Below, in pieces: positions 4,461 to 63,709 of a stretch of 64,000 bases of DNA. Numbering within the stretch: position 1 is the stretch's first letter; the number at the start of each line of letters is the position of its first letter. This stretch comes from Patescibacteria group bacterium. GTDB taxonomy: Bacteria; Patescibacteriota; SICC01. A program made the position numbers and the translations under genes. The stretch is taken from positions 335,814 to 399,813 of the forward strand of contig JBBDXB010000006.1 of assembly GCA_040902515.1 (NCBI GenBank), in the 5' to 3' direction. The notes under the pieces were generated by a model. The model saw nothing but the letters and a program-made list of their open reading frames with translations. It did not search any database and had not been told where the DNA came from.

Positions 4461-4487
4461 TGTAGTTGGTTGTTACTTTTCCTTTAG

Positions 4488-6238: not shown

Positions 6239-6302
6239 TGTCAATGACAAGCATTTAATTTACTTAATATAGCTTTAGAAAGTGTCAAAATAGAGATTGA
6301 CA
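6239..6302. promoter_or_regulatory. two TGTCA/TGACA palindromes (TGTCA-A-TGACA at 6239-6249; TGTCA-N10-TGACA at 6283-6302), candidate operators
   Basis: Perfect inverted repeats in an AT-rich divergent intergenic region. The second overlaps the -35 of the regulator promoter. Confidence 0.45.
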
Positions 6303-6325
6303 AAAGTAAGAAGGCAAACTATACT
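6297..6325 (+). promoter_or_regulatory. sigma70-type promoter TTGACA-17-TATACT driving a leaderless transcript of the TrmB-like gene
   Basis: Consensus -35 at 6297-6302, 17-nt spacer, -10 at 6320-6325. ATG at 6332 lies about 7 nt downstream of the -10, with no SD. Confidence 0.6.
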
Positions 6326-6331
6326 CGCCGA

Positions 6332-7099: not shown

Positions 7100-7103
7100 T
7101 CGT

Positions 7104-11014: not shown

Positions 11015-11076
11015 CCCGCGTTCGCGACGAAGATTGAAAACCCCTGCCCGCTCTGCCATGATGGGCTTTTTCAGCA

Positions 11077-11105
11077 TTGACAAAAACGTCTAAAAATGTT
11101 ATGGT
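11077..11105 (+). promoter_or_regulatory. sigma70-type promoter TTGACA-17-TATGGT upstream of pilB (very short leader)
   Basis: -35 at 11077-11082, -10 at 11100-11105. pilB ATG at 11118 leaves a leader of only about 5 nt. Confidence 0.5.
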
Positions 11106-11117
11106 TACGTAATTTCC

Positions 11118-13031
11118 ATGTCACATGAACTCACACCGCGGGAGCAGGCAAAGCTTGAGGACTTCGTCCGCAAGGGCTTGGGCGGTACCGCGGATACGCC
11201 GCCGTCTCCGAAGGACGAGACCGGTTCATCGCTTCGGGAACAGGACGAGGAACAGCGCGAGAAGCTGTCGCCCGTAAGCCCGTCGGTCAAGAGCAGCAAA
11301 CGGGTCGTGCAGGAGTCGGGCTCGGCACCCTCGAAGCAGAAGAAGGATGACGATGACGATATCGACCTGTTCGCCCGCGGCAACGTGAGTCGGGTGGTCG
11401 ATGAGTTCAGGGCCGAGAAAGTCGAGAAAGAGCAGCGGGCCGTCGCCAAGAAGGCCGGCCTGCCTTTCGTGCGGCTGATGGGATACCCGATCAGTCCGGA
11501 GGTGCTCGCCCTGATCCCACGGGAGATCGCCGAAAAGTACGGCGTGATCTCCTACATCAAGGTCGGCAACAAGGTGCGGGTCGGTGTCCGGCATCCCGGC
11601 ACGAAACAGACCGCGCAGGTACTGGAATCGCTCAACCGGGCGACGGACCATGACTACCTCGTGTCGGCGATCGGTGAGGATTCCTATCGTTACGCACTCA
11701 AGCTGTATGACGAACTGCCTGCGGCACGCGCAGCCACGTCGGATGTCTCCGTGGACGAGAAGGAAAAGAAATCGTTCGAGACGGACATCCAATCGTTCCT
11801 CGATCTCCGGTCCCGGATCAAGGACGTGCCGACCACCAAGGTCGTCGACACGCTCCTGACCGGCGCGGTAAAGGTGGGCGCCTCCGACGTCCACATCGAA
11901 CCGATGGAGGAGGGGGTACGGATCCGCTACCGGATCGACGGCGTGCTGCACACCGTTGCCGACTTCAAGACCGACATCCTGCAGAGCCTCCTATCCCGGC
12001 TGAAGTTCCTGGCCAAGCTCAAGCTGGACGTGAACCGCCTGCCGCAGGACGGCCGGTTCACGATCACGGACAAGCAGCAGGACCGGAGCGTCGAGCTCGA
12101 CGTCCGGGTGGCGACGATCCCTTCCCAATACGGCGAAGCGATCACCATGCGGCTCCTGAACCGCGATGCGACGGGTATCACGCTCGACGCGCTCGGCCTC
12201 ACCGGGGAAGCCCGCCGGAAGGTGCTGGCGGCGATCGATCGGCCGCAGGGCATGGTGCTGGAATGCGGTCCGACCGGTTCCGGTAAGACCACCACGCTCT
12301 ACTCGCTGCTCACGCGGCTCAACGATCCCGGCAAGAAACTCGTGACGCTGGAGGATCCGGTGGAGTACCGGCTGCCCGGCGTGATGCAGTCGCAGGTGGA
12401 TCCCGCCCACGGGTACGATTTCGCGGAAGGATTCCGCTCGGTCCTCCGGCTCGACCCCGACGTGCTGATGATCGGTGAGATCCGTGACAGCAAGACCGCC
12501 GACCAGGCGGTGCAGGCTTCCCTGACCGGCCACATCGTGCTCTCGACGCTGCATACCAACGATGCCCCGACCGCGATCCCGCGGCTTACGGACATCGGCG
12601 TCCGGCCGTTCCTGCTCGCCAACGCGATCAACGCGATCATCGCGCAGCGGCTGGTGCGGAAGATCTGCATCCATTGCGCGGCCGAGACCAAGCCGGACAC
12701 GGCCACACTCGAGGCGGTGCAGGAGGTGCTCAAGGCGTTGCCGGAACATGCCAAGGACAGCCTGCCGCCGAAGAAAGAATGGCTGTTCATGAAGGGCAAG
12801 GGCTGCGCGCAGTGCAACGGCACCGGCTTCTCCGGCCGCATCGGCATCTTCGAGGTGCTGGTGATCAGCGACGAGATCGAGCGGTTGGCGATGAACCGCG
12901 CGCCGATCAGCCAACTCCGGCAAGCGGCCCACCGGACGGGTATGATGACGATGGAACAGGACGGCTTGCTGAAGGCCTTGGCGGGCGTTACGACGATCAG
13001 CGAGGTCTGGCGGGTCGCACGTAACGTCTGA
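11118..13031 (+). CDS. pilB: type IV pilus / type II secretion assembly ATPase (GspE/PilB family) with ~120-aa disordered N-terminal extension
   Basis: Walker A GPTGSGKTT, Asp and His boxes, tetracysteine motif (CIHCAAE…CAQCNGTG), T2SSE N-terminal domain. Confidence 0.9.
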   Translation: MSHELTPREQAKLEDFVRKGLGGTADTPPSPKDETGSSLREQDEEQREKLSPVSPSVKSSKRVVQESGSAPSKQKKDDDDDIDLFARGNVSRVVDEFRAEKVEKEQRAVAKKAGLPFVRLMGYPISPEVLALIPREIAEKYGVISYIKVGNKVRVGVRHPGTKQTAQVLESLNRATDHDYLVSAIGEDSYRYALKLYDELPAARAATSDVSVDEKEKKSFETDIQSFLDLRSRIKDVPTTKVVDTLLTGAVKVGASDVHIEPMEEGVRIRYRIDGVLHTVADFKTDILQSLLSRLKFLAKLKLDVNRLPQDGRFTITDKQQDRSVELDVRVATIPSQYGEAITMRLLNRDATGITLDALGLTGEARRKVLAAIDRPQGMVLECGPTGSGKTTTLYSLLTRLNDPGKKLVTLEDPVEYRLPGVMQSQVDPAHGYDFAEGFRSVLRLDPDVLMIGEIRDSKTADQAVQASLTGHIVLSTLHTNDAPTAIPRLTDIGVRPFLLANAINAIIAQRLVRKICIHCAAETKPDTATLEAVQEVLKALPEHAKDSLPPKKEWLFMKGKGCAQCNGTGFSGRIGIFEVLVISDEIERLAMNRAPISQLRQAAHRTGMMTMEQDGLLKALAGVTTISEVWRVARNV

Positions 13032-13041
13032 GCGCGGCACC

Positions 13042-40818: not shown

Positions 40819-41265
40819 ATGGCGAGACAAAACACCAATCCGGTCCGGTCGAACCCGACCCATCCGGCGGCGTACGTGGCCTGGGCACAAGCGCTGGCCG
40901 CGACATCCGGCAGCCTCTACTTCAGCGAAGCCGCGGGATACCTGCCGTGCCTGCTCTGCTGGTACCAGCGGATCGCGATGTATCCGCTGGTCGTGATCCT
41001 GGCAGTCGGTATCCTGCGCCGGGACGCGAAGATGTACCAGTACGCCCTGCCGCTGGCGATCATCGGCGCTCTAGTCGCGCTATACCACGTACTGCTCTAC
41101 TACGGCGTGTTCCCCGAATCGGAACAGACCTGCCGGGCCGGGGTATCCTGTACGACCGAATACATCGAGTACCTGGGATTCATCACGATCCCGTTGCTCT
41201 CGCTGGTATCGTTCCTGGTAATTATCGGGTGCATGATGCTACTTTGGAAAGCGGCTAGGAGATGA
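40819..41265 (+). CDS. disulfide bond formation protein B (DsbB/BdbC-like)
   Basis: Four TM helices. Cys pairs CLLC and CRAGVSC in loops. Confidence 0.75.
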   Translation: MARQNTNPVRSNPTHPAAYVAWAQALAATSGSLYFSEAAGYLPCLLCWYQRIAMYPLVVILAVGILRRDAKMYQYALPLAIIGALVALYHVLLYYGVFPESEQTCRAGVSCTTEYIEYLGFITIPLLSLVSFLVIIGCMMLLWKAARR

Positions 41266-41891
41266 ACACCGAATCGAAAGTCATGATCGCCATCGCCGCC
41301 GTGATCACCGTCGCGGTGAGCGTGCTCTTGGTGATGAACGGTTCGTCACAAGGTGAATCCGAGGTGGCCGATCCCGGCAAGCTGGTCCGCGAGGATTCGA
41401 TCCAGTCCAACCCCGACGCCGCGGTGACGGTCGTGGAATTCGGTGACCTGCAGTGTCCGGCCTGTGCCGACGCCAACGCCACGGTCCAGCAGATCAAGGA
41501 TGAGTTCAAGGATCGGGTGAACGTGGTCTGGCGGCACTTCCCGCTGGACAGCCATGCCAACGCCGAGGCGGCCGCGAATGCCGCCGAGGCGGCCCATGCC
41601 CAAGGGAAATTCTTCGAATATGCCGATACCCTCTTCGCCCAGCAGGGTTCCTGGAGTGATACCACGGGCGGCAGCTTGGTCCAGCTTTTCGTGCAGTACG
41701 GTGAGGCACTCCAGCTCGACGGCGATACCATCACGCAGGCCGTGGAGAACGAGCAGTACCAGGATAAGATCGATCGCGACCGTCAGGATGGTCTGGCGCT
41801 CGGCGTCAATTCCACGCCGAGCTTCTTCGTGAACGGACAGCCGGTGCCGACCACGGGGCTCCGCCAGGCCGTCCAGGACGCCCTGAAGTAG
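41262..41891 (+). CDS. DsbA-family thiol-disulfide oxidoreductase
   Basis: N-terminal TM/signal helix. Thioredoxin fold with CPAC active site (GDLQCPACAD). ATGA overlap with dsbB. Confidence 0.8.
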   Translation: MNTESKVMIAIAAVITVAVSVLLVMNGSSQGESEVADPGKLVREDSIQSNPDAAVTVVEFGDLQCPACADANATVQQIKDEFKDRVNVVWRHFPLDSHANAEAAANAAEAAHAQGKFFEYADTLFAQQGSWSDTTGGSLVQLFVQYGEALQLDGDTITQAVENEQYQDKIDRDRQDGLALGVNSTPSFFVNGQPVPTTGLRQAVQDALK

Positions 41892-43108: not shown

Positions 43109-44995
43109 ATGAATCAACAACCACGACAATCAAACAACAACGACCGCTCGAAGCGGCCCCGCCGCTCCGGCGGCCAAAGAGGTGGCCAGGGTGGCCAAGG
43201 CGGCCAGGGTGGCCAGCGGCGCAACCGCCCGTCACGCGGCGGCGGACGCCGCCGCGGAGGACCGCCCCGCCGCTCCAACGGACCGCTGATCGGACCGGTG
43301 GCCCCGCCGACCGGAAAGCCGGCACCGCCGGGACCGAACCATTTGCGGATCATCCCGATGGGTGGCCTCGGTGAGATCGGCCTGAACTGCATGGCTCTGG
43401 AATACGGCAATGACATCATCATCATCGATGTCGGCCTGATGTTCCCCGACCAGACGATGCCGGGCGTGGACCTCGTCATCCCGGACGTCTCGTACCTCGA
43501 GGCCCGGAAGGACCGGATCCGCGGCATCTTCATCACCCATGCCCACCTCGACCACATCGGCGGCGCGCCGTACCTGGTGCCGAAGCTCGGCTTCCCGCCG
43601 GTCTACGCGACCCGGCTGGCCGACGGCTTCATCAAGGCGCAGCTGGAGGAGCACAAGCTCGACCGGCGGGTGCAGGTCAATACGTTCAAGTTCGACGACA
43701 AGATCAAGGCGGGCGTCTTCACGGTCGAGGCCTTCCACATCAATCACAACATTCCCGAAGGAGTCGGGTTCGCGATCACCACGCCGCTCGGCGTCGTGAC
43801 GCACTCCGGCGACTTCAAGTTCGACAAGACGCCGATCGCGGACACGCCGGCGGAATTCGACAAGATCAAGCGGATCGGCGAGCACGGCGTGCTGCTCGCG
43901 ATGAACGACTCCACCAACGTGGAGAAGCCCGGCCGGACCGTTTCCGAGATCGAGATCGAGAAGAACCTGATCGAACAGATCTCCAAGGCCAAGGGCCGGG
44001 TGATCATGTCGACGTTCGCTTCGCTCGTGTCACGGCTCCAGGAAGCGATCGATGCGGCCGAGAAGAACGGCCGGAAGGTCTGTATCGTCGGCCGCTCCAT
44101 GCTCAAGAACGTCGAGATCTGCCAACGGCTCGGCTACATCAAGATCCCGAAGGGGATCCTGGTGGACGTGCGGAAGCTCAAGGGCATCCCCGACCGGGAG
44201 CTCCTGGTGATCTGCACCGGCTCGCAGGCGACCGAGTTCTCGGCGCTGCTCCGGATGTCCACCGGCGAGCACGCACAGATCCAGATCAAGCAGGGCGATA
44301 CGGTGATCCTTTCCAGTTCGCCGGTACCCGGCAACGAGCGCGCGGTCGAATCCATGATGGACGACCTGTTCCGGCTCGGCGCGGACGTAATCTATAACAA
44401 GATGTATGACATCCACACCTCGGGACATGCCCAACAGGACGAGCTGCGCGAGATGATCCAGATGCTTCGGCCGAAGCACTTCATGCCGATCCACGGCGAG
44501 TACCGCAAGCGCGTACTCCATGGGCGGATCGCGAACGAGGAAGGCATTCCGCCGGCCAACGTACACATCCTCGACAACGGCCGGGTGCTTGAGGTCAAAG
44601 GCCCGGACCGGGTGGAGCTCACCAAGGAGCGCGCCGGCGGCGGCCTGGTACTCGTGGACGGCCTTGGTGTAGGCGACATCGGCCAGGTGGTCCTGCGGGA
44701 CCGCCAGCACATGGCCGAGGACGGCATGCTTGTGGCGATCATCACGGTGGACCGTCGCAGCGGCCAGTTGATCGGTAGCCCGGATATCATCTCCCGCGGC
44801 TTCGTCTATCTGAAGGAGTCCGGGAAGCTCATGGGCCAGGTCCGGGGCGAGATCAAACGGATGTTCAAGGGTGCGGAGAAACGGCCGAGCGAATGGTCGG
44901 CGACCAAGAACAAGGTCCGCGACGACCTCGGCGATTTTCTCTACGCCGAGACTGAACGCCGTCCGATGGTGATTCCGGTAATCATCGAAGTTTAG
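43109..44995 (+). CDS. rnj: ribonuclease J with ~90-aa Arg/Gly/Gln-rich N-terminal extension
   Basis: Metallo-beta-lactamase HxHxDH (THAHLDHIGG), beta-CASP domain, RNase J C-terminal domain. Confidence 0.9.
   Translation: MNQQPRQSNNNDRSKRPRRSGGQRGGQGGQGGQGGQRRNRPSRGGGRRRGGPPRRSNGPLIGPVAPPTGKPAPPGPNHLRIIPMGGLGEIGLNCMALEYGNDIIIIDVGLMFPDQTMPGVDLVIPDVSYLEARKDRIRGIFITHAHLDHIGGAPYLVPKLGFPPVYATRLADGFIKAQLEEHKLDRRVQVNTFKFDDKIKAGVFTVEAFHINHNIPEGVGFAITTPLGVVTHSGDFKFDKTPIADTPAEFDKIKRIGEHGVLLAMNDSTNVEKPGRTVSEIEIEKNLIEQISKAKGRVIMSTFASLVSRLQEAIDAAEKNGRKVCIVGRSMLKNVEICQRLGYIKIPKGILVDVRKLKGIPDRELLVICTGSQATEFSALLRMSTGEHAQIQIKQGDTVILSSSPVPGNERAVESMMDDLFRLGADVIYNKMYDIHTSGHAQQDELREMIQMLRPKHFMPIHGEYRKRVLHGRIANEEGIPPANVHILDNGRVLEVKGPDRVELTKERAGGGLVLVDGLGVGDIGQVVLRDRQHMAEDGMLVAIITVDRRSGQLIGSPDIISRGFVYLKESGKLMGQVRGEIKRMFKGAEKRPSEWSATKNKVRDDLGDFLYAETERRPMVIPVIIEV
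43181..43216 (+). repeat. 4 x 9-nt tandem repeat (GGTGGCCAG-like) encoding (GGQ)4 inside the rnj N-terminal extension
   Basis: ggtggccag / ggtggccaa / ggcggccag / ggtggccag, contiguous. Confidence 0.8.
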
Positions 44996-45016
44996 CCCGA
45001 GGTTTGACTGCCGGGC

Positions 45017-46837
45017 TCACGTAGCCGGCTGGCAGGGACCGTCCGCGGTATCGCAGACGACTTCCTGCCAGCCACCGGCGGAGAAGCTTCCCCCGGGACC
45101 GGCCGAAAAATCGATGTCGGCGAGACCGGTCAGGTACGTGATCGTCGCGTTGTTGTTCAGTTGGAGCCGCTGGGCGGTCAACGCATTGGCCCCTCCATTG
45201 TTACTGATCTGAATGGTACCGAAGGGGGCGGCCAGGACGATGCTGTCCGAGTTGTTGGAGGAATGGATGGCATTTCCGGAAGCATCGCTGGTGGCGAGCA
45301 ACAGGAAGCTGTTCGGATCGCCGCTTCCCTCGAATTCGACATTATTGGAAATGGTTACCTGTTCGTCGGCGACGATCGCTCCGCTGGAGCTGCCATAGTC
45401 CGGGTGGAGCAGGATATTGACGTTGTTGGAGAAGAGGATGGTGCCGGTCACCCAGACGGTTCCGGTCATGATCAACGTCGCACCATTCTCGACGTTCAGG
45501 TTGCCTTCGATTTTCATCGGGCCGACAGTGCGGGTCTGGCCGAGTGGAATCGTGTAATCACCGGTATGTGTCGCGCCTGCCGACGCCTGGTTCTTGAAAT
45601 CGACCAGGTTGGCTTCGGTGATCGGCAGATCCTTTTGCGGAGGATCCTCGCTACCGGGGAAGCGGGTGCCGCCGACGCTTGAGCCGTCATCCACCTGGTA
45701 GTAGGCATCGCCCGTCACATCAAGGTCCTTGATCTCGTGGGCGTGGACGTCGCCGCCGACATCCAACCGTTCCGCCCGGGTTGGCGGGCTTCCCATGAAC
45801 GCCTTGAATCCGAAATCCAGGTCCGCATCCTCCCAGTCGTGGTTGCCGTTCGAGCGCCAGCGATCGGAAAACATCCCTTGTCCGTCGGGGTATCCGTCCT
45901 GAGCTCCCCAGGCCCAGTAGTTACTCGGGGAACCGGATGTGTCTATGACGATCCAGTAGTCCTGCCCCCCGTCCAACGTCGGAGGATTCGAAAGGCTGAC
46001 TTGGATGAACTGCAAGGTATTCCCGACGGAGGCGGTGCTCAGGGTGCCGCTGGCAACCTGGTTTCCCGAGGGTTCGCCTCCGGCATCCCTGACGATGCGG
46101 ACCGTCGCGTTCGCAGGATTACCGAATTTCCGCACCAACAGGCCGACCTTGATCAGCTTGTCGCTCGCGGAAGTATCCGGCTTGAAGCGCTGTGCGACGT
46201 CAATGACGTCAGGATTGGTGGAATGCCCGAAGACGAATTCCAGGGGATCGGACGGGACGTGTTCCGGCGTCGCTTCGAGCGCGGCACCCCCGGCCACCCA
46301 GACGTCGCCGGTCACCTGTGCGCCGTTGTTGCCGACATGGTCCCCATTGGAGTAGGACGAGCCATGGATGATGGCATTGTTATTCATGTGGATGCCACCC
46401 GCCCCGGCCTGCAGCGCGTAGGCGAAATCCGCTTCCACGGAAGGAATCGGACAGTTGCTTACCTGGATCCGCCGGACCAGATCATCCACGAATCCGGAGG
46501 CGGTGACCTGCTTCGCCGATCCGCAGCTTTCGGTGGAAACGGTCTCGACGACCGTTTCCACCCGATCGGTATCACTGAACGTCGTGGTAAGCGTCGTGCT
46601 GGTGCTTCCGTATGACGCATTGCGCTTCATCTGGAGCAGGGCGTCCTCAGTGCCGCTCTCCGCGTGATAGAGGCTTTGGACGGAGCCGACCCGCTGGTTC
46701 GAGATGCGGTAATTGATCACCGAGGTCGTTACCATCGCGGCGGCGATCACCACGACGATCGCCGAATACATGCCGACGCCGAGGATGCCGATTACGCCGC
46801 GCTGGTCCGTCAGCCGTCGGATGCCCGCGCGCCTCAC
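45017..46837 (-). CDS. large pilus-associated protein (606 aa; putative minor-pilin/tip or PilY/PilX-like), last gene of the prepilin operon
   Basis: N-terminal hydrophobic anchor. Gly/Asn/Thr-rich beta-type composition. ATGA overlap with the upstream prepilin gene. Confidence 0.55.
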   Translation of the reverse strand: MRRAGIRRLTDQRGVIGILGVGMYSAIVVVIAAAMVTTSVINYRISNQRVGSVQSLYHAESGTEDALLQMKRNASYGSTSTTLTTTFSDTDRVETVVETVSTESCGSAKQVTASGFVDDLVRRIQVSNCPIPSVEADFAYALQAGAGGIHMNNNAIIHGSSYSNGDHVGNNGAQVTGDVWVAGGAALEATPEHVPSDPLEFVFGHSTNPDVIDVAQRFKPDTSASDKLIKVGLLVRKFGNPANATVRIVRDAGGEPSGNQVASGTLSTASVGNTLQFIQVSLSNPPTLDGGQDYWIVIDTSGSPSNYWAWGAQDGYPDGQGMFSDRWRSNGNHDWEDADLDFGFKAFMGSPPTRAERLDVGGDVHAHEIKDLDVTGDAYYQVDDGSSVGGTRFPGSEDPPQKDLPITEANLVDFKNQASAGATHTGDYTIPLGQTRTVGPMKIEGNLNVENGATLIMTGTVWVTGTILFSNNVNILLHPDYGSSSGAIVADEQVTISNNVEFEGSGDPNSFLLLATSDASGNAIHSSNNSDSIVLAAPFGTIQISNNGGANALTAQRLQLNNNATITYLTGLADIDFSAGPGGSFSAGGWQEVVCDTADGPCQPAT

Positions 46838-47343
46838 TGCGACCTCGTGGTTATCGTGGTGTCGAGCATGAGGTCGGCCGATTCCCCACCGCTGCTGCGC
46901 CGGAGCGATCCGTCTACCCGTACCGCGGCCAGCGCTCCGTCCGTGCAGGTCGGGAAGAACGAGAGGTCCTGGACGGTCGTGCCGGGCGAGAGCAGGACTT
47001 CGCTCTGGCCCGACTCATCGGTGTAACGGATCCGGTTGTCGGAGATGTCATACCGGCGCGTCTGACCTCCGGAAAGGGAGACCGTCAGAGCATCGGCGTT
47101 TTGGACGTTGCAGACGGTCGGTGAAGCCACCCCGATGGCCGGCTTGAGATGGCCGGACAGGTGTCCCGACACGGCGTCCACGTCGCGTTGGAGTTCCTGC
47201 ACCAACCGGTCCTGGAGGCTCGTCTTGAGAATGATCGAATAGAGCGTGGCGGCAGCGAGGGCCAGGAGGATGAAGATACTGAATGCCACGATCAGCTCGA
47301 TCAGGGTGAGTCCGGACTGCCGGTTGGTGATGCGATGTGTCAT
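46834..47343 (-). CDS. type IV prepilin-like protein
   Basis: Class III signal peptide MTHRITNRQSG|LTLIELIVAFSIF (G-1, E+5). Confidence 0.75.
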   Translation of the reverse strand: MTHRITNRQSGLTLIELIVAFSIFILLALAAATLYSIILKTSLQDRLVQELQRDVDAVSGHLSGHLKPAIGVASPTVCNVQNADALTVSLSGGQTRRYDISDNRIRYTDESGQSEVLLSPGTTVQDLSFFPTCTDGALAAVRVDGSLRRSSGGESADLMLDTTITTRSQ

Positions 47344-47864
47344 TGCCAGTTGGTGAGATAGGCGTACAGCGAGCGGGTGACGGTCCGGTTTCCCTGTTCC
47401 CAGGTGACGGTCACGGTGGTGCGACGGGTGTCCGGATCGTCGAACTGGCCGCAGTTGCTGCCGGTACAGATCCGGTCCCCAGCGGTCAGGGTACCGGATC
47501 CGTCGCTATCCTCGCGATGGACGTCCTCGAACCGGACGGTGCGGGTGTACTCTCCGATGGCCTCGCTACCCTCGGTCAGGGTCCACGGCGGCGCCGTTCC
47601 GGGCTGGGCATGCAGCCGGTAGTCCGTGCCCGGAGCAGGCCCGGCGACCAGCTCCCAATCGTGGTCGCGGATGCTCCGGACCGCCTCGATGCCTTCCTGT
47701 AGGTAGTTCACTGCCTGGACGGTGTCGCGCCCCTCCTCCGAGGTAGACTTGGCCAGCAGGGTAATCTGCACGAGTGCTACCACGCCGATCACGAATACCG
47801 TCATCGCGACGACGGCCTCCACCAGCGTGAACCCGCGCTGCCCGGTGCCGATGCTACTCCGCAT
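47340..47864 (-). CDS. type IV prepilin-like protein
   Basis: MRSSIGTGQRG|FTLVEAVVAMTVFVIGVVAL prepilin signal. Confidence 0.75.
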   Translation of the reverse strand: MRSSIGTGQRGFTLVEAVVAMTVFVIGVVALVQITLLAKSTSEEGRDTVQAVNYLQEGIEAVRSIRDHDWELVAGPAPGTDYRLHAQPGTAPPWTLTEGSEAIGEYTRTVRFEDVHREDSDGSGTLTAGDRICTGSNCGQFDDPDTRRTTVTVTWEQGNRTVTRSLYAYLTNWQ

Positions 47865-48357
47865 TGATCACCCCCGAGGACTCGATCCGGACGGTACGGT
47901 TTCGCTGCGGGTCGGTACTACTGAACGTCAGGGTGCCCGACGTGCCGTCCGTGGGCTTACCGGTGACCCGTTCGAAGGTGACGTGATCCGCTGCCGGCGT
48001 CAGGTCCACCGCCAGGCTGGCCACGGAGAATTCCTCGCTCCGGACCGTCCCGGCGAATCCGCTCACGCACGGATCGGCGGTATCGTTCATGTCCTGTGCG
48101 TAGGACGTCCAGCCGTCCGCATCGAAGCAGACTCCGTACTCCTTGTTGTCCTTGGCGGCGCGAGCGTCTCCCTGCATCCGCTTAAGCTCGGCCACGGTCT
48201 CCTCGACCTCGCCGTTGAACCGCGGACCGCGGTCCTGTCCGACCAGCATGAACGTCGCGGTGGCGGCGATGCCGACGATGGTCAGGACCACGATCGCTTC
48301 CACCAACGTGAATCCGCGCTGGGTCGGGGGCAGGCAGTATCGCCTCAAGAAATGCAT
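47854..48357 (-). CDS. type IV prepilin-like protein
   Basis: MHFLRRYCLPPTQRG|FTLVEAIVVLTIVGIAA prepilin signal. Upstream in-frame starts at 48411 and 48417 would give an implausibly long leader. Confidence 0.7.
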   Translation of the reverse strand: MHFLRRYCLPPTQRGFTLVEAIVVLTIVGIAATATFMLVGQDRGPRFNGEVEETVAELKRMQGDARAAKDNKEYGVCFDADGWTSYAQDMNDTADPCVSGFAGTVRSEEFSVASLAVDLTPAADHVTFERVTGKPTDGTSGTLTFSSTDPQRNRTVRIESSGVINAE

Positions 48358-48437
48358 GTTCGTTTTTACGGTCGTTTCACGCGTCAGTATAGCCGAATGG
48401 ACAAGATTCATGAACACGGACGGCTATACTGGGGAGT

Positions 48438-50240
48438 ATGCAATCGCATATCCGGAATTTCTGCATCATCGCCCACATTGACCACGGGAAGTCCACGCTG
48501 GCCGACCGGCTGTTGGAACATACCGGTACGGTCGAGCGGCGGGACATGCGCGAACAGCTCCTCGATTCGATGGACCTGGAGCGCGAGCGCGGCATCACGA
48601 TCAAGCTCCAGCCGGTGACGATGCGCTGGAGACCGTCCGGCACGCCGGCTGCGGACACATTGGAGTTGAACCTGATCGATACGCCCGGCCACGTGGATTT
48701 CTCCTACGAGGTCTCACGGACGCTCTCGGCCTGCGAGGGCGCGCTGCTTTTGGTGGATGCCACCCAGGGCATCCAGGCCCAGACGATCGCCCACGCCCTG
48801 CGGGCCAAGGAGGAGGGGCTCCGGGTGATTCCCGCCATCAACAAGATCGACCTGCCTGCGGCCGAGCCGGAGGATACCGCCAAGGCGGTGGCGGAAACGC
48901 TGGAGTTGCCGGAGGACGACGTACTCTTCGTCTCGGCCAAGACCGGCGACGGCGTATCGGAGTTGCTCGAGGCGATCCGCGACCGCGTCCCGCCGCCGAG
49001 CGGCGATCCTGCCGCACCCCTCCGCGCCCTGGTATTCGACTCTTACTTCGATTCCTACCAAGGCGTGATTGCGTATGTCCGGGTGGTCGACGGCGAACTG
49101 CCCGCGCGTCTGCCGGTCCGCCTGATGGCCGCCGGGCGGAGCGGCGAGGCGCAGGAGGTCGGCGTGCTGACTCCGGAAAGGAAGAAGCTGCCACAGCTGG
49201 CAACCGGCAGCATCGGGTTCATGGTGACCGGGCTCAAGGACCTTTCGCAGGTCCGGGTGGGCGATACCGTCACCGCGGCCGGTACGCCCGCGCAGCAGCC
49301 GCTGCCCGGATACCAGGTGGTGGCTCCGATGGTGTTCGCCGGGCTATTCGTGCAGAGCGGCAGTGAGTTCGCCAAGCTCCGAGACGCGCTGGACCGGCTC
49401 TCGCTCCATGATGCGTCGTTCACTTTCGAGCCGGTGCAGTCGCAGGCGCTCGGGCAGGGGTTCCGCTGCGGGTTCCTGGGGCTGCTCCACCTCGACATCA
49501 TCCGCGAGCGGCTGACCCGTGAATTCGGACTCGACCTGGTGGTGACCGCCCCGACGGTGCCGTACGAGGTACGGCTCACCGACGGCAGCACGGAGACCGT
49601 CACCGATCCGGCGGAACTGCCCGATCCCACCAAGATCGCGGAGACCCGCGAGCCTTGGGCGAAACTGGAGGTCGTCTGCCGGAGCCAGGACCTTGGCGCG
49701 GTCCAGCAGTTGATCGCCGATCGCCGCGGAGCGTTCGTCGGCACGTCGTTCGCGAGCAGCGACCGCGTGCTAGTGGAGGCAGAGCTTCCGCTCGCGAACC
49801 TGGTTGCCGACTTCTACGATCAGCTCAAGGGCGTGACCGCGGGGTACGGTTCGCTGGCGTTCGAGCGCACCGGTTTCCGGGCGGCGCCGCTGGTACGGAT
49901 CGATTTCCTGATCGCCGGCGACGCGGTGTCCGGTCTCTCCGTGATCGTGCATCGCGATGAGGCCGAACGCCGGGCACGGGGCATGCTCAAGAAGCTACAG
50001 GAGGTGATCCCGCCGGCACTGTTTGAGATCGCGCTGCAGGCGGCGATCGGCGGCAAGGTGATCGCCCGTGAGAACATCAAGCCGCGGAAGAAAGACGTGA
50101 CGGCCGGTCTCTACGGCGGTGACGTCACCCGGAAGCGCAAGCTCCGCGAAAAGCAGAAGAAGGGAAAGGCCCGGATGAAAGCCAAGGGGAACATCCGGAT
50201 TCCGGCGGAAGCGTTCGTCGCGGTGCTCAAACAAGACTAG
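48438..50240 (+). CDS. lepA: elongation factor 4
   Basis: GTPase G1-G5 motifs (AHIDHGKST, DTPGHVDF, NKID) and LepA-specific C-terminal domain. Confidence 0.95.
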   Translation: MQSHIRNFCIIAHIDHGKSTLADRLLEHTGTVERRDMREQLLDSMDLERERGITIKLQPVTMRWRPSGTPAADTLELNLIDTPGHVDFSYEVSRTLSACEGALLLVDATQGIQAQTIAHALRAKEEGLRVIPAINKIDLPAAEPEDTAKAVAETLELPEDDVLFVSAKTGDGVSELLEAIRDRVPPPSGDPAAPLRALVFDSYFDSYQGVIAYVRVVDGELPARLPVRLMAAGRSGEAQEVGVLTPERKKLPQLATGSIGFMVTGLKDLSQVRVGDTVTAAGTPAQQPLPGYQVVAPMVFAGLFVQSGSEFAKLRDALDRLSLHDASFTFEPVQSQALGQGFRCGFLGLLHLDIIRERLTREFGLDLVVTAPTVPYEVRLTDGSTETVTDPAELPDPTKIAETREPWAKLEVVCRSQDLGAVQQLIADRRGAFVGTSFASSDRVLVEAELPLANLVADFYDQLKGVTAGYGSLAFERTGFRAAPLVRIDFLIAGDAVSGLSVIVHRDEAERRARGMLKKLQEVIPPALFEIALQAAIGGKVIARENIKPRKKDVTAGLYGGDVTRKRKLREKQKKGKARMKAKGNIRIPAEAFVAVLKQD

Positions 50241-55968: not shown

Positions 55969-57003
55969 ATGTCCAAAGAGACCTACTATGACGTCCTCGG
56001 CGTGTCCCGGACGGCGACCGCGGAGGAAATCAAACGCGCATACCGGACGTTGGCCCGGGAGTATCATCCGGACGTCAACAAGGGCGACCAGGCGGAAGAG
56101 CAGTTCAAGCGGATCAACGAGGCGTACGGTACGCTGTCCGATTCGTTGAAGCGCGCCGACTACGACCAGCAGATCGCGGATCCCGGCGTGCGGGGCGGGG
56201 GTGTGTCCGGCGCCGGCGCCGCGCGTCCGGGGGCATCCCAGGCCGAGGCTGCCGCGGCACAGGGGCCCTACCGGCAGGCGCTGATCCGTGCGGCACTCGT
56301 GCGGACGATAGCCTGGGGACTGATCGCGGCCCTGGTTGGCGGTCTGCTCGCCCTTTCGCTCGAGTACCTTACCGCCACCCGGATCGATCCGTCCGCCGGA
56401 GTCCTGGGTGCCATACCGGGGCTGGTCGTGGGGTTGCTCTGGGGAGCGGACTATAATTTCAAAGTGGAGACGTTCCTGGGTACCGGTTGGCTGAGCCGGA
56501 GCTACACGCTGGCTCGGACGATCCTGATGAGCCTCGGCCTCGCCTACTACGGCGGCTTGCTTGGAGGCACAATCGACGCCGCGGCGGGGACGGGTATCTT
56601 CACCGTGTCCCTGATCCTGCTCGGCGTCCTGTCCGGTGCCGTGGCCGGATCCGACGGCGATACCGTCGAGAAGCTCCGGAGCGGCCAGGGCCGGTTCAAC
56701 CTGTTCTACACGCTGCTGCGCGGCGCCGAAGTCGGCGCGCTCGGCGCGGCGGTCGGCGCGGGTCTTGGCGGCGTCCTGGCGATCGCGGGCAGAGGCGGTG
56801 CCTTCGGCTGGACGGTGCTCACCGGATTTGCGCTCGGCATGATTATCGGCTCGATCAAGCCGCCGAACCTGGCGGCGTATGCCAGCTATGCCTCAGCTTC
56901 CGTCAAAAGCCTGATCATAATCCTGATGGTCCTCGGTGCCCTCGTGGTAGGCGTGTTGTTCGGGGCGATCGCGGGACCGGAGCTGTTGCCGGACGCGCGA
57001 TGA
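55969..57003 (+). CDS. J-domain protein with polytopic membrane C-terminal region
   Basis: N-terminal J domain with HPD (YYDVLGV…[10 protein letters not shown]), then Gly/Ala-rich TM segments. Confidence 0.75.
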
Positions 57004-57045
57004 CCCCCTGACGGTACGACGATAATTCCCTAAACTAGACACGCT

Positions 57046-58197
57046 ATGCCTACGAGCAAGGATTATTATGACATTCTCGGTATTTCCCGACAGGCCTCGG
57101 TGAACGACATCAAGCGGGCCTATCGGAAGCTGGCGCATAAGTACCATCCGGACAAAGGCGGTACCAAGGAGGACGAACGGAAGTTCCGTGAGGTGCAGGA
57201 AGCGTACGAAGTGCTTTCAGACGACAAGAAGCGGGCGGCGTACGACCAGTTCGGCCACGCCGGCGCGGCCGGTGCGGGGGCTGGTCCGGGTGGTTTCGGT
57301 GGTCAGGGCTTCGGCGGATTCCAGGGCGGTGCCGAGGGGGTCGACTTCGGCGGGTTCGGTGACATCTTCGAGCAGTTCTTCGGCGGGTTCGGCGGCGCCG
57401 GCACGCGTCAGCGCGGTCCGGCGCGTGGATCCGACCTGCAGGTGAACGTGACCGTCGATTTCGAAGAGGCCGTCCGCGGTGCGGACAAGGAAGTGTCGCT
57501 GACACGGCGTGCGGCCTGCGGAACCTGCAGTGGCAATGGCGCCGCTAAGGGCGCGAAGATCGTCACGTGCCAGCGCTGCAACGGCCAGGGCCAAGTGCAG
57601 GTCACCCGGCGGACGATCCTTGGCACGATGGCCCAGGTAACTCCCTGTCCGGAATGTCACGGCGAGGGCAAGCGGCCGGAAAAGGCGTGCCCGACCTGCG
57701 GCGGCGAAGGACGCGTCCAGAAAAAGGAGACGCTCAAGGTGAAGATCCCGGCCGGTATCGATGACGGCCAGACGATCCGGGTGCAGGGAGCCGGTGAGGC
57801 CGGCGAACGGGGAGCCCCGTCCGGCCATGCGTACGTGGTCGTCCGGGTGAAGCCGTCCAAGGCGTTCGAGCGCGACGGTGCCGATCTCAGGATCGCCGTG
57901 CCGGTCAGCTTCGCCCAGGCCACGCTCGGCGCGACGATCGAAGTGCCGACGCCGACCGGTGATACCGCCACGTTCAAGATTCCCGCAGGGACCCAGAGCG
58001 GCACGTCGTTCACGCTGAAAGGCGAGGGCATGCCGAAACTCGGCTCCGCCGCCCGCGGCGACCTGGTCGCGACCGTCCAAGTGGTCGTGCCGAAGAAGCT
58101 CTCCGCGGAGGAAAAGAAGCTCGTGGAAGCGCTTGGCAGGCATGATGACATGGATGTCGGAGGCAAATCCGGCCTCTTCGGCAAGCTCGGATTGTAG
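57046..58197 (+). CDS. dnaJ: molecular chaperone DnaJ (type I)
   Basis: J domain with HPD, G/F region, four CxxCxGxG zinc-finger repeats, C-terminal domains. Confidence 0.95.
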
Positions 58198-60013: not shown

Positions 60014-63000
60014 ATGACACGGAGCACCAGAAGGATCCTCGCCCATTCGGCTATCGTCACGGCCTGCGTAGCAGTGACGGCGGTGGCCGGTGTCGTCCTT
60101 CTCTCCCAGCAGGCCGAGCCGGCAGCGCCGGCGGCACTCGACGCCGTCGAGCGGATCGAGCGCGTTACCGAAGTCGCCGGCCAGCCCGTCGAACGGGTGG
60201 AAGTGGGAGGCCGCGAAACCAAGGCGGCGGCAGGTCGGCTGGTCGTGACCCTCGAGAGCGACGAGGCAAAGGCGCGGTTCGGTGACCGGCTCACGCCGAC
60301 TACCCTGCCCGACACCTACCTGCTGGCAATCGACGGTCCGCTCGAGTCGGAGCGAAGGGCCGTGGCTGCGGTCCCGGGCGTAACGCAGGTGACCCCCGAC
60401 TACGTGGTCACCGCCACCCGGACGCCGGACGACCCGCAGTACTCGTCTCACCAGTGGAACCTGCCGAAGATCGACGCTCCGCAGGCGTGGGATCGGACCA
60501 TCGGGGACGCATCTCTCCTGTCCGCCAATATCGATACGGGAGTGAACCGGAGCCACCAGGACCTGACCGCGCGGATGTGGACGAATGCCGGCGAAACGCC
60601 CGACAACGGCGTCGACGATGACGGCAACGGCTACATCGACGACTACCACGGTATGGACTTCGTGAACGCGACCCAGCCGGAAAGCGGCGTCTTCCAGAAT
60701 GACGCCGACGGTCCGCTGGACGACCACGGCCACGGCACCCTGACCTCGTCGGTTACCGGTGCCGCGACCGACAACGCGACCGGCATCGCCGGCGTGGACT
60801 GGCAGGCGAAGATCGTCGCCGTGAAGGTCCTCGACAGCGATGGGTTCGGCTTCTTCTCAGACGTGGCCGAGGGTATCCGGTACGCTTCCGTCGTCGGCGC
60901 GAAGACCGCGAATCTCAGCCTGGGTGCGTTCGGTGTGGATAGCGACGCCATGACCGACGCCGCCATCGAGTACGCGACGGGGCGCGGGACCATCGTGGTC
61001 GCCGCCTCCGGCAACGACGGCTCCTCGACCGTGGTGGATTACCCGGCCAAGCACCCGGACGCGATCGCCGTCGGTGCCACCGGTTCGACCGACGTCCGGG
61101 CCAGTTATTCCAACGGAGGTCCTGAGCTGGACCTGGTCGCGCCAGGTTCCGGCATCCGCGGCGCGGGACTCGGTAGTACGAGCTACATCAACGCCAGTGG
61201 CACCTCGCTCTCCACGCCCCACGTGGCCGGCGTGGCGAGCCTGCTCAAGAGCATCAACCCGGGACTGACCACCGCCCAGGTAAGGAGCATCCTCCACAAG
61301 TCGGCGGACAAGGTGTCCGGCATGAACGGGGCCACCCGGACCGACCTCTACGGGTACGGCCGGCTTAACGCCAAGCGCGCGTTGGACCAACTCAAACCGT
61401 ATTCGGCACGTTGGGCCGGACAGTCGGCGCACCCTTCGATCAGCCCGGGGGAGGACGCGACGGTGCATGTGGACTTCAAGAACACCGGCTCGCTGGCCTG
61501 GTCGAATACCGGCTCCAACCCGGTCCGGCTTGGTACCAGCCACCCTCGTGATCGCTGGTCTCCGTTCTATAACGATACTTGGTTGACACCGACCCGGACG
61601 GGCAGCTTCACGGGCCGTGTCGAAGGCGACGGTTCGGTCACGACTACCGGCACCATTGAGCCCGGCGAGACCGCCCGGTTCAGCTTCACGATGACGGCGC
61701 CGCCGCGGACCACCGTAGCGAACCTGCGGGAATACTTCCAGCCGGTCGCCGAAGGCGTGACCTGGCTCGAGGATTGGGGAATGTATCTGGAACCGACGGT
61801 GTCGGGGGAAACCTATGCCTACGAGTATGTCAGCCAGACCAACACCAGCGGCGTGATGCAGCCGAACGAGCGGCAGGAGGTGACGATCGACCTGAAGAAC
61901 ACCGGGACCGCCGCCTGGCGCAACGACACGTTGTTTGACTTCAAGCTGGGCACCAGCCGTACCCGGGACCGTTCGAGTATCACCTACAACGACACCTGGC
62001 AGGTCCCGAACCGCATCGGTGCGTTCAAGGGGACGGTGTCCGGCGGTGTCCTTACCGAGACGAATGCGGTCGAGCCCGGCGAGACCGCCCGGTTCCGGTT
62101 CGATTTCAAGGCACCGTCCGGTGGCACCAATCACAAGGAATACTTCCAGCCGTTGATCGAGCGCTTCGCCTGGCTGAAGGACATCGGCATCTACTGGTCC
62201 ATCGTCGTGCCATCGCAATCGTACGATTACCAATGGGTGAGCCAGAGCGCCCATCCGGTGATGGAGGAAGGCGCGACCGCCACCGTAAGCATTCGCCTCA
62301 AGAACATCGGTTCCTCGAACTGGCAGTCGGACGGATCGAACCCGGTCCGGCTCGGCACCGACCGTCCGCAGGACCGGCTTTCCGGATTCACGGACGGCGG
62401 TTCGGCCGCGGGCTGGATCGGCATGAACCGGGTCAAGCTCACGCGCAACGTGACGGACACCGGGAAGAACGTGGACGGCGAGACGACCGTCGCTCCCGGC
62501 GAGGTCGGTGAGTTCGAATTCGATGTAGTAGGAGATCCGGCCCCCGGGACATACCGGGAGTATTTCCGGCCCGTTACCGAGGGAATCGCCTGGATGCGCG
62601 ACATCGGCATCTACTGGGACATGACCGTCAGCCACCCGATTGACGTGGGCCTGGCCCAGCAGGGGTCGATGACGTTCACCTCGGACGGCACCGTGACGAT
62701 CCGCGACGTCCTGGGGGCGGTCCGCGGTACGGCCAGCGCCGGCCAGACCGTCACGCTCCGGTATACCGGCTCCTCTTACCAAGCGGTCCTGCCGAGCGGG
62801 ACGATCACCTCGTGCTGCGCGTTGACCGCTGAGCAGGGTGCGAACAGCCTCTTCACGATCTCGGATCTGGCGAACGGCGGTTCCAACAACCGCTTCCGCG
62901 GATCGCTTGCAATCCGGAACGGGACCGTTGGTAGCTGGGCGGTGAACACGCTGAACCTTGAGGAATACCTGCGCGGTCTCGGTGAAGTGCCGGATTCCTG

Positions 63001-63709
63001 GCCGGCGGAAGCGATCAAGGCACAGGTGGTGGCAGCCCGGACCTACGCCGCCCGGCAGATCAGCGCTCCGAAGACCGACATCTTCGACCTCTACGACGAT
63101 ACGCGCGACCAGGTCTATTCCGGTTACAACCGTGAGGCGGTCCAGCCGAACCACGTGAGCGCGATCAGTGCGACCAAGGGGAAAGTGATCAAGCGCGATG
63201 GAGCGCTGATCCAGGCCTTCTATAGCTCGAACGCGGCGGGACATACCGCCTCGAACGAGGAGGTATGGGGCGGCAGTCCGATCAATTACCTGCGCGGCAA
63301 GTCCGACGGCTACTCGCTGGCGTCCGACACCGACCATCTCTGGCCGGACACCACCTCCCGCGACACGATCAAGACGAACTACGGCTACGGCTGCACGGTG
63401 ACCGGCGTCAGCGTTCCGGTCACCTACACCTCCGGCCGGATGAAGACGGTGCGGCTCTCCGGGAGCGGTTGCGCGACCAAGGATTACACGCTGGCGGCGG
63501 ACACCCACCGGAGCCGGCTGGGCCTGCCGAGTTCGCAGGTGACGGGTGTCAGCAAGAGCGGCACGGACTTTGTCTTCTCGGGGAAAGGGTTCGGTCACGG
63601 CATCGGCATGAGCCAGTGGGGTACCTACCGGCGGGCCGCGGCCGGCCAAGGTTACGCGACGATCCTCGGGTTCTACTACACCGGTGTGTCGATCACGAAC
63701 CTGTACTAG
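60014..63709 (+). CDS. giant secreted protein (1231 aa): N-terminal peptidase S8 (subtilisin) domain, four tandem ~120-aa beta-sandwich-like repeats, and a C-terminal SpoIID/LytB domain
   Basis: Signal peptide. S8 catalytic triad motifs (DTGVNRSHQDL; HGHGTLTSS; GTSLSTPHVAG). Four repeats (…FKNTG…W…NPVRLGT…PGETARF.F…EYFQP…W). C-terminal SpoIID motifs (AQVVAARTYAARQ; YSSNAAGHT; GHGIGMSQWG). Confidence 0.9.
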   Translation: MTRSTRRILAHSAIVTACVAVTAVAGVVLLSQQAEPAAPAALDAVERIERVTEVAGQPVERVEVGGRETKAAAGRLVVTLESDEAKARFGDRLTPTTLPDTYLLAIDGPLESERRAVAAVPGVTQVTPDYVVTATRTPDDPQYSSHQWNLPKIDAPQAWDRTIGDASLLSANIDTGVNRSHQDLTARMWTNAGETPDNGVDDDGNGYIDDYHGMDFVNATQPESGVFQNDADGPLDDHGHGTLTSSVTGAATDNATGIAGVDWQAKIVAVKVLDSDGFGFFSDVAEGIRYASVVGAKTANLSLGAFGVDSDAMTDAAIEYATGRGTIVVAASGNDGSSTVVDYPAKHPDAIAVGATGSTDVRASYSNGGPELDLVAPGSGIRGAGLGSTSYINASGTSLSTPHVAGVASLLKSINPGLTTAQVRSILHKSADKVSGMNGATRTDLYGYGRLNAKRALDQLKPYSARWAGQSAHPSISPGEDATVHVDFKNTGSLAWSNTGSNPVRLGTSHPRDRWSPFYNDTWLTPTRTGSFTGRVEGDGSVTTTGTIEPGETARFSFTMTAPPRTTVANLREYFQPVAEGVTWLEDWGMYLEPTVSGETYAYEYVSQTNTSGVMQPNERQEVTIDLKNTGTAAWRNDTLFDFKLGTSRTRDRSSITYNDTWQVPNRIGAFKGTVSGGVLTETNAVEPGETARFRFDFKAPSGGTNHKEYFQPLIERFAWLKDIGIYWSIVVPSQSYDYQWVSQSAHPVMEEGATATVSIRLKNIGSSNWQSDGSNPVRLGTDRPQDRLSGFTDGGSAAGWIGMNRVKLTRNVTDTGKNVDGETTVAPGEVGEFEFDVVGDPAPGTYREYFRPVTEGIAWMRDIGIYWDMTVSHPIDVGLAQQGSMTFTSDGTVTIRDVLGAVRGTASAGQTVTLRYTGSSYQAVLPSGTITSCCALTAEQGANSLFTISDLANGGSNNRFRGSLAIRNGTVGSWAVNTLNLEEYLRGLGEVPDSWPAEAIKAQVVAARTYAARQISAPKTDIFDLYDDTRDQVYSGYNREAVQPNHVSAISATKGKVIKRDGALIQAFYSSNAAGHTASNEEVWGGSPINYLRGKSDGYSLASDTDHLWPDTTSRDTIKTNYGYGCTVTGVSVPVTYTSGRMKTVRLSGSGCATKDYTLAADTHRSRLGLPSSQVTGVSKSGTDFVFSGKGFGHGIGMSQWGTYRRAAAGQGYATILGFYYTGVSITNLY

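Follow-up and report, generated by a model that had tools for sequence, protein, structure and literature searches.

What do four tightly overlapping genes, three of them prepilin-like and the last encoding a protein of 606 aa, contribute to a Patescibacteria cell? Type IV pili are needed by Patescibacteria for host attachment, motility, and probably DNA uptake; their pilins are highly divergent, and databases mostly label them "hypothetical" or "choice-of-anchor R domain-containing." The four genes lie at positions 45017 to 48357 of the window, by which we mean the whole 64-kb stretch of DNA that was analyzed. The first-pass annotation had taken them for a minus-strand operon with overlaps of 11, 4, and 4 nt, which agrees with the four open reading frames (ORFs) listed there:

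47854..48357, minus strand: gene 1, 167 aa from the ATG start at 48357, or 187 aa if translated from the GTG at 48417 (ORF 47854-48417).
47340..47864, minus strand: gene 2, 174 aa, overlapping gene 1 by 11 nt (47854-47864).
46834..47343, minus strand: gene 3, 169 aa, overlapping gene 2 by 4 nt (ATGA).
45017..46837, minus strand: gene 4, 606 aa, with a GTG start that shares 4 nt (GTGA) with the end of gene 3.

All four are real genes on which purifying selection acts, because synonymous codon differences outnumber nonsynonymous ones in each of them (15/10, 25/8, 19/9, and 69/21 for genes 1 to 4, counted against a relative of 94% identity) and GC3 is high in all four frames (0.76 to 0.83), as is usual for genes of this genome. 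The identical 11/4/4 overlaps recur in a relative whose large protein shares no more than 60% identity. A scan of positions 44800 to 48700 for promoters and terminators returned none exceeding shuffled expectation.

A class III prepilin is recognized here by a short basic leader, Gly(-1), a hydrophobic residue at +1, Glu(+5), and a hydrophobic helix of ~20 residues. The three class III signal peptides claimed earlier for this locus are present: the leaders read MHFLRRYCLPPTQRG/FTLVE in gene 1 (ending TQRG), MRSSIGTGQRG/FTLVE in gene 2 (ending GQRG), and MTHRITNRQSG/LTLIE in gene 3 (ending RQSG), where the slash marks the predicted cleavage site. Pfam N_methyl (PF07963) lies above its cut-off of 21.2 bits in each (32.4, 27.3, and 27.2 bits, respectively), and a six-frame regex scan found prepilin motifs in the real genes of the 64-kb window in genes 1 to 3 only.

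Judged from its domain matches, gene 1 is a GspH/FimU-class minor prepilin and not the GspH of a type II secretion system (T2SS). Pfam GspH (PF12019) covers aa 66 to 162 at 34.1 bits (cut-off, 21), and the T2SS GspH equivalog model TIGR01708 reaches 41.3 bits, short of its cut-off of 80; among 19 positional orthologues, GspH was matched in 6 and N_methyl in 17. Gene 2 is best described as PilV/GspI/ComGE-like, on the basis of below-cut-off N-terminal matches only: TIGR02523 (PilV) aligns to its N-terminal 61 aa (E = 7.7e-7), and its positional orthologues match PilV (17/19), ComGE (13/19), and GspI (9/19), every time below cut-off. Gene 3 is a GspJ/PilW-class minor prepilin. Its globular domain has the GspJ type of fold, with Thermus TTHA1219 and GspJ as the nearest structures; a single-sequence homologue search with it returned three matches. 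Searched against Pfam, the orthologues of genes 2 and 3 matched N_methyl alone, and PDB sequence-profile searches with genes 1 to 3 went no further than the N-terminal helix of various major pilins, a match that does not tell the classes apart. The minor-pilin set suspected at first reading is supported, with the small genes as its H, probable I, and J members.

The machine that such a set would serve is visible in more distant Patescibacteria, where PilB and/or PilC is encoded upstream of the gene 4 homologue in 24 of the 26 loci examined. The typical layout is pilB-pilC-three prepilins-large protein, and several loci run on into pilM-pilN; the gene 4 homologue always closes the run of prepilin genes, overlapping by 4 nt, and pilM is often directly next. 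The pilus association that the first-pass annotation had given the 606-aa protein is supported by these homologues, which lie inside the type IV pilus clusters of other Patescibacteria. A locus search based on an alignment of the 15 closest sequences showed the close clade to keep the four-gene unit flanked by lepA and the RNase J gene, with the same overlaps and 44 to 97% identity; here the module has left the pilus cluster. It had also been described as uncoupled from the PilB ATPase, and indeed the window has just one further type IV pilus gene, 32 kb away:

11118..13031, plus strand: a 637-aa PilB-like assembly ATPase that matches Pfam MshEN and T2SSE (the latter at E = 1e-115), without an adjacent pilC.

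Searches with phmmer for Patescibacteria PilC, PilD, PilM, PilN, PilO, and PilT found nothing further in the 64-kb window, and no major pilin was found there; we assume that this genome encodes a working pilus machine. The same loci bear on whether the module could build no external pilus but a pseudopilus instead, either GspH-I-J-K proper in a type II secretion-like system or an Hps-like one for polysaccharide export. The small genes have GspH, GspI, and GspJ among their best named matches, and two gene 2 orthologues match the hormogonium polysaccharide pseudopilin HpsB, but no T2SS equivalog model reaches its cut-off, and neither a secretin nor any other T2SS-specific gene was seen in the window or in the related loci, which carry PilM, PilN, PilO, and PilT instead. 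Patescibacteria are generally considered to be without an outer membrane, and an exposed tip would better suit the head of the 606-aa protein described below. We consider a pseudopilus extremely improbable.

Whether gene 4 is itself a pilin is less obvious from its N terminus. It had been described as anchored at its N terminus and without a canonical prepilin motif, and only part of that description holds. The N terminus, LTDQRG/VIGIL, places QRG ahead of a hydrophobic helix, as in genes 1 and 2, and Gly(-1) (Gly14) is kept in 51 of 51 aligned homologues; Phe(+1) is missing, and Glu(+5) occurs in 0 of 52 homologues. Since the Gly(-1) of the cleavage site is conserved, it is only the +1/+5 half of the motif that is noncanonical. 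Gene 4 reaches no pilin threshold in Pfam, and PilX_N (PF14341) gives no match to it at E ≤ 1; among its homologues PilX_N is matched by 6 of 52 (best E = 4.5e-7), and one distant relative is named a PilX N-terminal domain protein by NCBI. When a profile of the 52 homologues was run against all PDB sequences, it found no solved relative, and ComZ (6QVI) went unmatched at E ≤ 1. The AF2 model divides the protein into four segments:

46433..46837, minus strand: aa 1 to 135, pilin module comprising the leader, a helix (aa 13 to 72), and a four-stranded sheet (aa 81 to 127), from the secondary structure of the model.
46277..46432, minus strand: aa 136 to 187, first beta-solenoid turns; the best conserved segment (52% mean identity, 51 homologues).
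45794..46276, minus strand: aa 188 to 348, jelly-roll insert (choice-of-anchor R domain).
45017..45793, minus strand: aa 349 to 606 and the stop codon, main part of the beta-solenoid, flanked by a helix (aa 408 to 419), and a conserved C-terminal GPGGS...W-x-E strand.

In this model a pilin module is fused with a beta-solenoid of the ice-binding-protein type, the architecture of a ComZ-like tip pilin, and ice-binding proteins are its top structural matches. The choice-of-anchor R model NF041539 covers aa 212 to 337 at 44.2 bits (cut-off, 30); this insert, which short-form relatives of ~430 aa do not have, is similar to carbohydrate-binding modules and to those with which phages bind receptors. 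Cys105 and Cys129 are invariant in alignment columns of the close clade. Structure prediction thereby separates the two folds that had been proposed for the 606-aa protein at the outset, bearing out a beta-helix, as a beta-solenoid with a jelly-roll, and not a PilY1-like beta-propeller. The propeller is rejected, because the model consists of solenoid and jelly-roll with a pilin helix and no propeller is among the top matches. A true ice-binding protein is likewise rejected: the pilin anchor is present, and neither gene 4 nor any of its 52 homologues has a Pfam match to DUF3494, so that the likeness is one of fold only. An unrelated enzyme family, which the first-pass annotation had named as the outcome that would overturn its reading, was looked for and gave no match in Pfam, the NCBI/TIGR models, or the PDB profile search, and gene 4 as an enzyme is rejected.

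We therefore regard gene 4 as a predicted PilX/GspK-class, ComZ-like modular pilin, an assignment that is well supported; its link to ComZ and GspK draws on predicted structure and gene order, because sequence profiles match no solved relative. The evidence likewise supports a pilin-anchored, nonenzymatic surface protein of the PilX/GspK/ComZ type. A different reading would make the 606-aa protein an independent membrane-anchored surface protein, such as an ice-binding or cell wall adhesin, merely cotranscribed with the pilins. The ice-binding structural matches, the NCBI label carried by its relatives ("choice-of-anchor R domain-containing protein"), and the lack of a direct Pfam pilin match in the window protein would suit such a protein. 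We find it very unlikely nonetheless, given the invariant Gly(-1) in a QRG context common to the neighboring prepilins, the PilX_N matches among homologues, the pilin-type helix and sheet of the model, the constant place at the end of the prepilin block, and the failure of DUF3494 to match by sequence.

Taken together, the four genes probably encode the core minor pilins of a type IV pilus, in the order H-I-J-K, in a high-GC, Saccharimonadia-like Patescibacteria bacterium; their most likely role is to prime the pilus and then form its tip, capped by a bulky head. We propose that N-terminal hydrophobic helices would insert all four proteins into the cytoplasmic membrane, where a prepilin peptidase encoded outside the window would cut after the conserved Gly, in gene 4 as in genes 1 to 3. 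The four helices could then assemble into a short priming bundle on the PilC/PilMNO platform, with the 606-aa protein on top; with no further subunit above, we suggest, it could do without Glu5. The J and I pilins would sit beneath it, and H would join the complex to the major pilin. With the PilB ATPase inserting major pilin underneath, the complex would be pushed outward to become the pilus tip. The head of beta-solenoid and jelly-roll may be too bulky for the shaft and would thus cap the fiber, facing outward, where its likeliest target would be a surface such as the envelope of the host cell, with DNA less likely.

The head itself says little of its ligand. Gene 4 is rich in small residues (Gly, 11%; Ala, 9%; Ser, 9%; Thr, 8%), with Gly+Ala+Ser+Thr at 37.6% compared to 25 to 30% in the cytoplasmic proteins of the window, and its head domains are acidic (pI 4.46 and 4.13), with just 20 Lys+Arg in 419 residues. 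Conservation per domain is flat, with no hypervariable domain, and therefore gives no hint of the ligand; an acidic head with no hypervariable domain positively indicates neither a DNA-binding role nor that of a host-specific adhesin. The same four-protein tip complex might be specialized for DNA uptake, as in the competence pilus built by Thermus pilA1-pilA2-pilA3-comZ, with the solenoid protein as a DNA receptor at the tip that feeds ComEC. DNA uptake would suit a nucleotide-auxotrophic Patescibacteria cell and the compact ComG-like gene order of distant relatives (ATPase, platform, pilins, and large protein), and it could draw on the ComGE matches of gene 2 orthologues. Across Patescibacteria, the large protein is also better conserved (about 30 to 35% identity) than the small pilins (about 16 to 20%), which fits a universal ligand. 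The strongly acidic head domains argue against this reading, as do the lack of sequence similarity to ComZ, the likeness of the jelly-roll insert to carbohydrate-binding and phage receptor-binding modules, and the finding that the second pilus system of the Saccharibacterium TM7x (T4P-2), which includes the large pilin PilX2, contributed nothing to competence (PMC11623550). On balance, we think specialization for DNA uptake rather unlikely. With some hesitation, we speculate that the long-form protein could be a host-recognition device of an epibiotic Patescibacteria cell: a jelly-roll of the sort that phage baseplates and carbohydrate-binding modules employ would be set into a solenoid like that of ComZ, carried on a pilin of the GspK type, and would select a host surface from the pilus tip. 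If this were true, relocation of the module to its housekeeping surroundings, beside lepA and the RNase J gene, could reflect changed expression of the tip set or its sharing between pilus systems.

The gene 4 family is large, with 1,209 clusters (50% identity) at E ≤ 1e-30 and 5,073 at E ≤ 1e-10. The core minor-pilin reading provides this widespread family with a reasoned annotation, as a K-class, ComZ-like tip pilin partnered by the three core minor pilins H, I, and J, and it offers one defined candidate host or DNA receptor in cultivable relatives.

Known systems share parts of this arrangement. PilY1 tip adhesins have no pilin helix but a type I signal peptide and a beta-propeller at the C terminus, a description that gene 4 does not fit. 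In the Saccharibacterium Nanosynbacter lyticus TM7x, a member of the same superphylum, the large pilins PilX1 (jelly-roll) and PilX2 (beta-propeller) have no predicted PilD signal, and loss of pilX2 lowers host binding (PMC11623550). By the published description, these resemble gene 4 as the largest pilin of their locus, with an accessory domain and no predicted PilD signal, and as proposed tip adhesins, but gene 4 combines a jelly-roll with a solenoid, and no solenoid was reported for PilX1. Cyanobacterial PilX families have the same beta-solenoid and were proposed to replace PilY1 as a "tip plug" (bioRxiv 10.64898/2026.02.12.705559); this likeness is drawn from a description of the fold in another phylum, and only the long form reported here carries the jelly-roll insert. 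The ComGD-ComGE-ComGF-ComGG set of monoderm Com pili (PMC10790768, PMC8727766) has in common with the distant relatives an ATPase, a platform, pilins, and a noncanonical last pilin, besides the ComGE matches of gene 2 orthologues, all below cut-off. In contrast, ComGG is small and without a solenoid head, and no ComGC-like major pilin adjoins the genes here.

The cluster pilA1-pilA2-pilA3-comZ of Thermus thermophilus (6QVI; PMC6561018) likewise consists of three canonical prepilins followed by a large pilin missed by pilin-finding software, and Thermus TTHA1219 is, with GspJ, nearest to gene 3. ComZ, a pilin of the GspK type whose solenoid resembles that of ice-binding proteins, is argued to be located at the tip (PMC6561018). 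A ComZ-like tip pilin would be expected to bind DNA and the I-class pilin and to be required for transformation; in ComZ, the C-terminal strand returns to the pilin sheet. Unlike ComZ, to which it has no detectable sequence similarity, the window protein is acidic and carries an extra jelly-roll inserted in its solenoid, and it comes from a Patescibacteria bacterium that probably has no outer membrane. Core H-I-J-K minor-pilin sets, of which PilX and GspK, both without Glu5, are placed at the tip (PMC7541494), also agree in layout with the set described here. Common to both are the gene order, a GspH domain in gene 1, a GspJ fold in gene 3, and a last member without Glu5 whose N terminus is of the PilX_N type in some homologues. 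The present set differs in that all equivalog scores fall below cut-offs, no machinery gene adjoins the module in this genome, and there is no PilY1 gene, the bulky head being carried on the K-class pilin itself. The four-gene set is not a new type of system, and its annotation as standard minor pilins is well supported.

The first-pass annotation had described a minus-strand operon of three prepilin-like genes and a fourth, larger pilus-associated gene, with junctions overlapping by 11, 4 and 4 nt, as expected if translation is coupled. The open reading frame coordinates reproduce these overlaps at the gene 1/2, 2/3 (ATGA) and 3/4 (GTGA) junctions.

Coordinates of the operon, its flanking genes and the PilB-like ATPase gene
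48438-50240, plus strand: lepA, divergent flank
47854-48357, minus strand: gene 1, 167 aa from ATG (187 aa from an upstream GTG at 48417)
47340-47864, minus strand: gene 2, 174 aa
46834-47343, minus strand: gene 3, 169 aa
45017-46837, minus strand: gene 4, 606 aa, GTG start
43109-44995, plus strand: RNase J gene, convergent flank
11118-13031: PilB-like ATPase gene (T2SSE, E=1e-115), 32 kb from the operon, with no pilC neighbor

GC3 is biased in each of the four frames as it is in true genes of this genome (64% GC), and synonymous codon differences from a 94% identical relative exceed nonsynonymous ones throughout (15/10, 25/8, 19/9 and 69/21 for genes 1 to 4). The class III signal peptides proposed for genes 1 to 3 are present as described (QRG/FTLVE, QRG/FTLVE and QSG/LTLIE, the slash marking cleavage), all above the Pfam N_methyl cutoff, and a scan of the whole 64 kb found no prepilin motif in any other gene. 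Because reading frames, overlaps, GC3, codon differences and prepilin motifs agree, we regard the operon as confirmed.

Genes 1 to 3 probably stand in the order H, I, J of the core minor-pilin classes (GspH/FimU, GspI/PilV/ComGE and GspJ/PilW). Gene 1 carries a GspH globular domain (aa 66 to 162; 34.1 bits against a Pfam cutoff of 21), also matched by 6 of 19 positional orthologues, and falls under the cutoff of the type II secretion GspH equivalog model. The match of gene 2 to PilV (E=7.7e-7) is restricted to the N-terminal 61 residues; among its 19 orthologues, PilV was matched by 17, ComGE by 13 and GspI by 9, all below cutoff. Since these three families make up the I class, gene 2 is, on sequence, probably the I-class subunit. 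Genes 1, 3 and 4 belong to their general classes, the latter two on structure and motifs; cutoffs of the curated equivalog families were not reached.

The 606-aa product of gene 4 had no match in Pfam and matched no enzyme family, whereas a match to an unrelated enzyme family is what the first-pass annotation had named as refuting its pilus reading; a sequence profile search found no solved relative. An NCBIfam choice-of-anchor R domain spans aa 212 to 337 (44.2 bits, cutoff 30). Across 52 aligned homologues, the leader ends in Gly without exception (51/51); next come a hydrophobic helix that never has Glu at +5 (0/52), a small sheet region and conserved Asn/Gly-rich repeats; a further segment of ~160 residues (aa 188 to 348) is missing in relatives of ~430 aa. 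PilX_N was matched by 6 of the 52 homologues (best E=4.5e-7) and DUF4082 by 5. AlphaFold2 modeling (pLDDT 84.5, pTM 0.59) predicted a 60-residue helix with a four-stranded antiparallel sheet, together a pilin module, followed by beta-rich domains and one flanking helix. Foldseek ranked a phi812 baseplate protein first, through the jelly-roll part, and Thermus ComZ fifth. Prepilin peptidase recognizes its substrates chiefly by Gly(-1), and cleavage of the gene 4 product is plausible because this residue is kept within a QRG context common to the neighboring prepilins. Separately, the gene 4 product has two Cys pairs, one at 105/129 that does not vary within the close clade and one at 595/602, and counterparts of a plus-strand gene pair 3 kb away (40819-41891) carry DsbB and DsbA/thioredoxin Pfam domains in a relative; pilins of the operon may need disulfide formation.

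All gene 4 homologues lie in metagenome-assembled genomes of Patescibacteria (CPR). The closest (97%) is on contig CAYZCS010000002.1, labeled uncultured Candidatus Saccharibacteria, and a Candidatus Saccharimonadia genome has a 61% relative on an 810-kb contig. The family is large, poorly annotated and made up mainly of proteins of 580 to 650 aa; its representatives number 23,703 at E<=1e-3, falling to 5,073 at E<=1e-10 and to 1,209 at E<=1e-30. Some much longer members (e.g., P0187, P0190, P0215 and P0242; 741 to 1004 aa) contain two to three profile-matching stretches from the jelly-roll/solenoid region on, which suggests duplicated head modules.

Reading the module as a set of tip pilins hinges on genomic context elsewhere. 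Among distant homologues (29 to 38% identity), PilB and/or PilC is encoded upstream in 24 of 26 loci, usually as pilB-pilC, three prepilin genes each with G/[FY][ST]L[IV]E, and then the large protein. In the group lacking the insert, pilM and pilN follow directly. The homologue closes the pilin block both in locus L005 (pilB-pilT-pilC-pilin-pilD-pilin-six small genes-601 aa-pilM-185-aa gene without Pfam match-pilO) and in L003 (pilC-pilin-pilin-pilin-434 aa-pilM-pilN), and in L004 the four-gene module stands alone among housekeeping genes. Throughout the close clade (44 to 97% identity; L001/L002, L006-L011 and L026) the module adjoins the RNase J gene, with lepA at its opposite end on every contig long enough to show it (L008 and L011 stop short); L001 has identical 11/4/4 overlaps, and no pilus machinery was found within 8 to 10 kb at these loci. 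L001/L002, from the relative with 60% identity, also carry an extra 415-aa gene without Pfam match (11822-13069, minus strand) between the large pilin and RNase J genes; the window lacks it and has 21 nt between these two genes. The module was said to be uncoupled from PilB, and the only PilB-like gene in the window is indeed the distant one; it is the only pilus gene besides the operon, and phmmer searches with Patescibacteria PilC, PilD, PilM, PilN, PilO and PilT found nothing else there. Before this orphan (region 9740-14511) comes the gene for a 424-aa membrane-anchored protein carrying a bacterial TSP3 repeat, and after it one for a protein with a SpoIID domain. This lineage seems to have its pilus genes scattered.

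PilX and GspK, the minor (pseudo)pilins without Glu5, are assigned to the extreme tip of the priming complex (PMC7541494). In Thermus, the gene for ComZ follows pilA1-pilA2-pilA3; ComZ is missed by pilin predictors, joins a GspK-like pilin module to an ice-binding-protein-like solenoid and binds the I-class pilin PilA2, a tip-only fit being argued on steric grounds (PMC6561018). Cyanobacterial PilX has the same solenoid and is proposed as a tip plug replacing PilY1 (bioRxiv 10.64898/2026.02.12.705559). In the Saccharibacterium TM7x, neither of the two large pilins, PilX1 with a jelly-roll and PilX2 with a propeller, has a predicted PilD signal, and loss of pilX2 reduces host binding with the filament still present (PMC11623550). 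By analogy, the products of genes 1 to 4 would together form a priming and tip complex with the 606-aa protein as its uppermost subunit, whose solenoid and jelly-roll head would cap the fiber and provide an exposed binding surface. Alternatively, the head might receive DNA or serve only as a structural cap: among pilus proteins ComZ comes closest, conservation across Patescibacteria is higher for the large protein than for the three small ones, and none of its domains is hypervariable. We counted for surface or glycan binding the similarity of the jelly-roll to carbohydrate-binding and phage receptor-binding modules, a lectin-like Pfam domain in two homologues and the acidity of the head (pI 4.1 to 4.5). 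On balance we judge adhesion the more probable role, ahead of DNA reception.

Other features of the window were also recorded. An Rfam tRNA match at 1607-1724 (plus strand, 50.4 bits), not called by ARAGORN, has 53 nt where a 7-nt anticodon loop is expected; this tRNA gene thus carries ~46 extra nt, as an insertion or intron. GC content at 2000-8000 is 54 to 59% (~64% elsewhere), and Pfam gave no match for open reading frames 3783-4460, 4649-5314, 5395-6225 and 7104-8042; the stretch may be an island that is foreign or evolving fast. Downstream of hrcA-grpE-dnaK are two neighboring DnaJ-domain genes (55969-58197, plus strand), one of full length, including the Zn finger and C-terminal domain, and one that has just the J domain. 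A 1231-aa protein (60014-63709, plus strand) has subtilase S8, Ig-like and SpoIID domains, an uncommon pairing of a protease with a domain of the cell-wall amidase-enhancer type.

In working and organization, the pilin module is like FimU-PilV-PilW-PilX, GspH-I-J-K and Thermus PilA1-PilA2-PilA3-ComZ. Two features are particular to it, a jelly-roll set into the solenoid and its relocation away from machinery genes, and both are variations on an already described theme.
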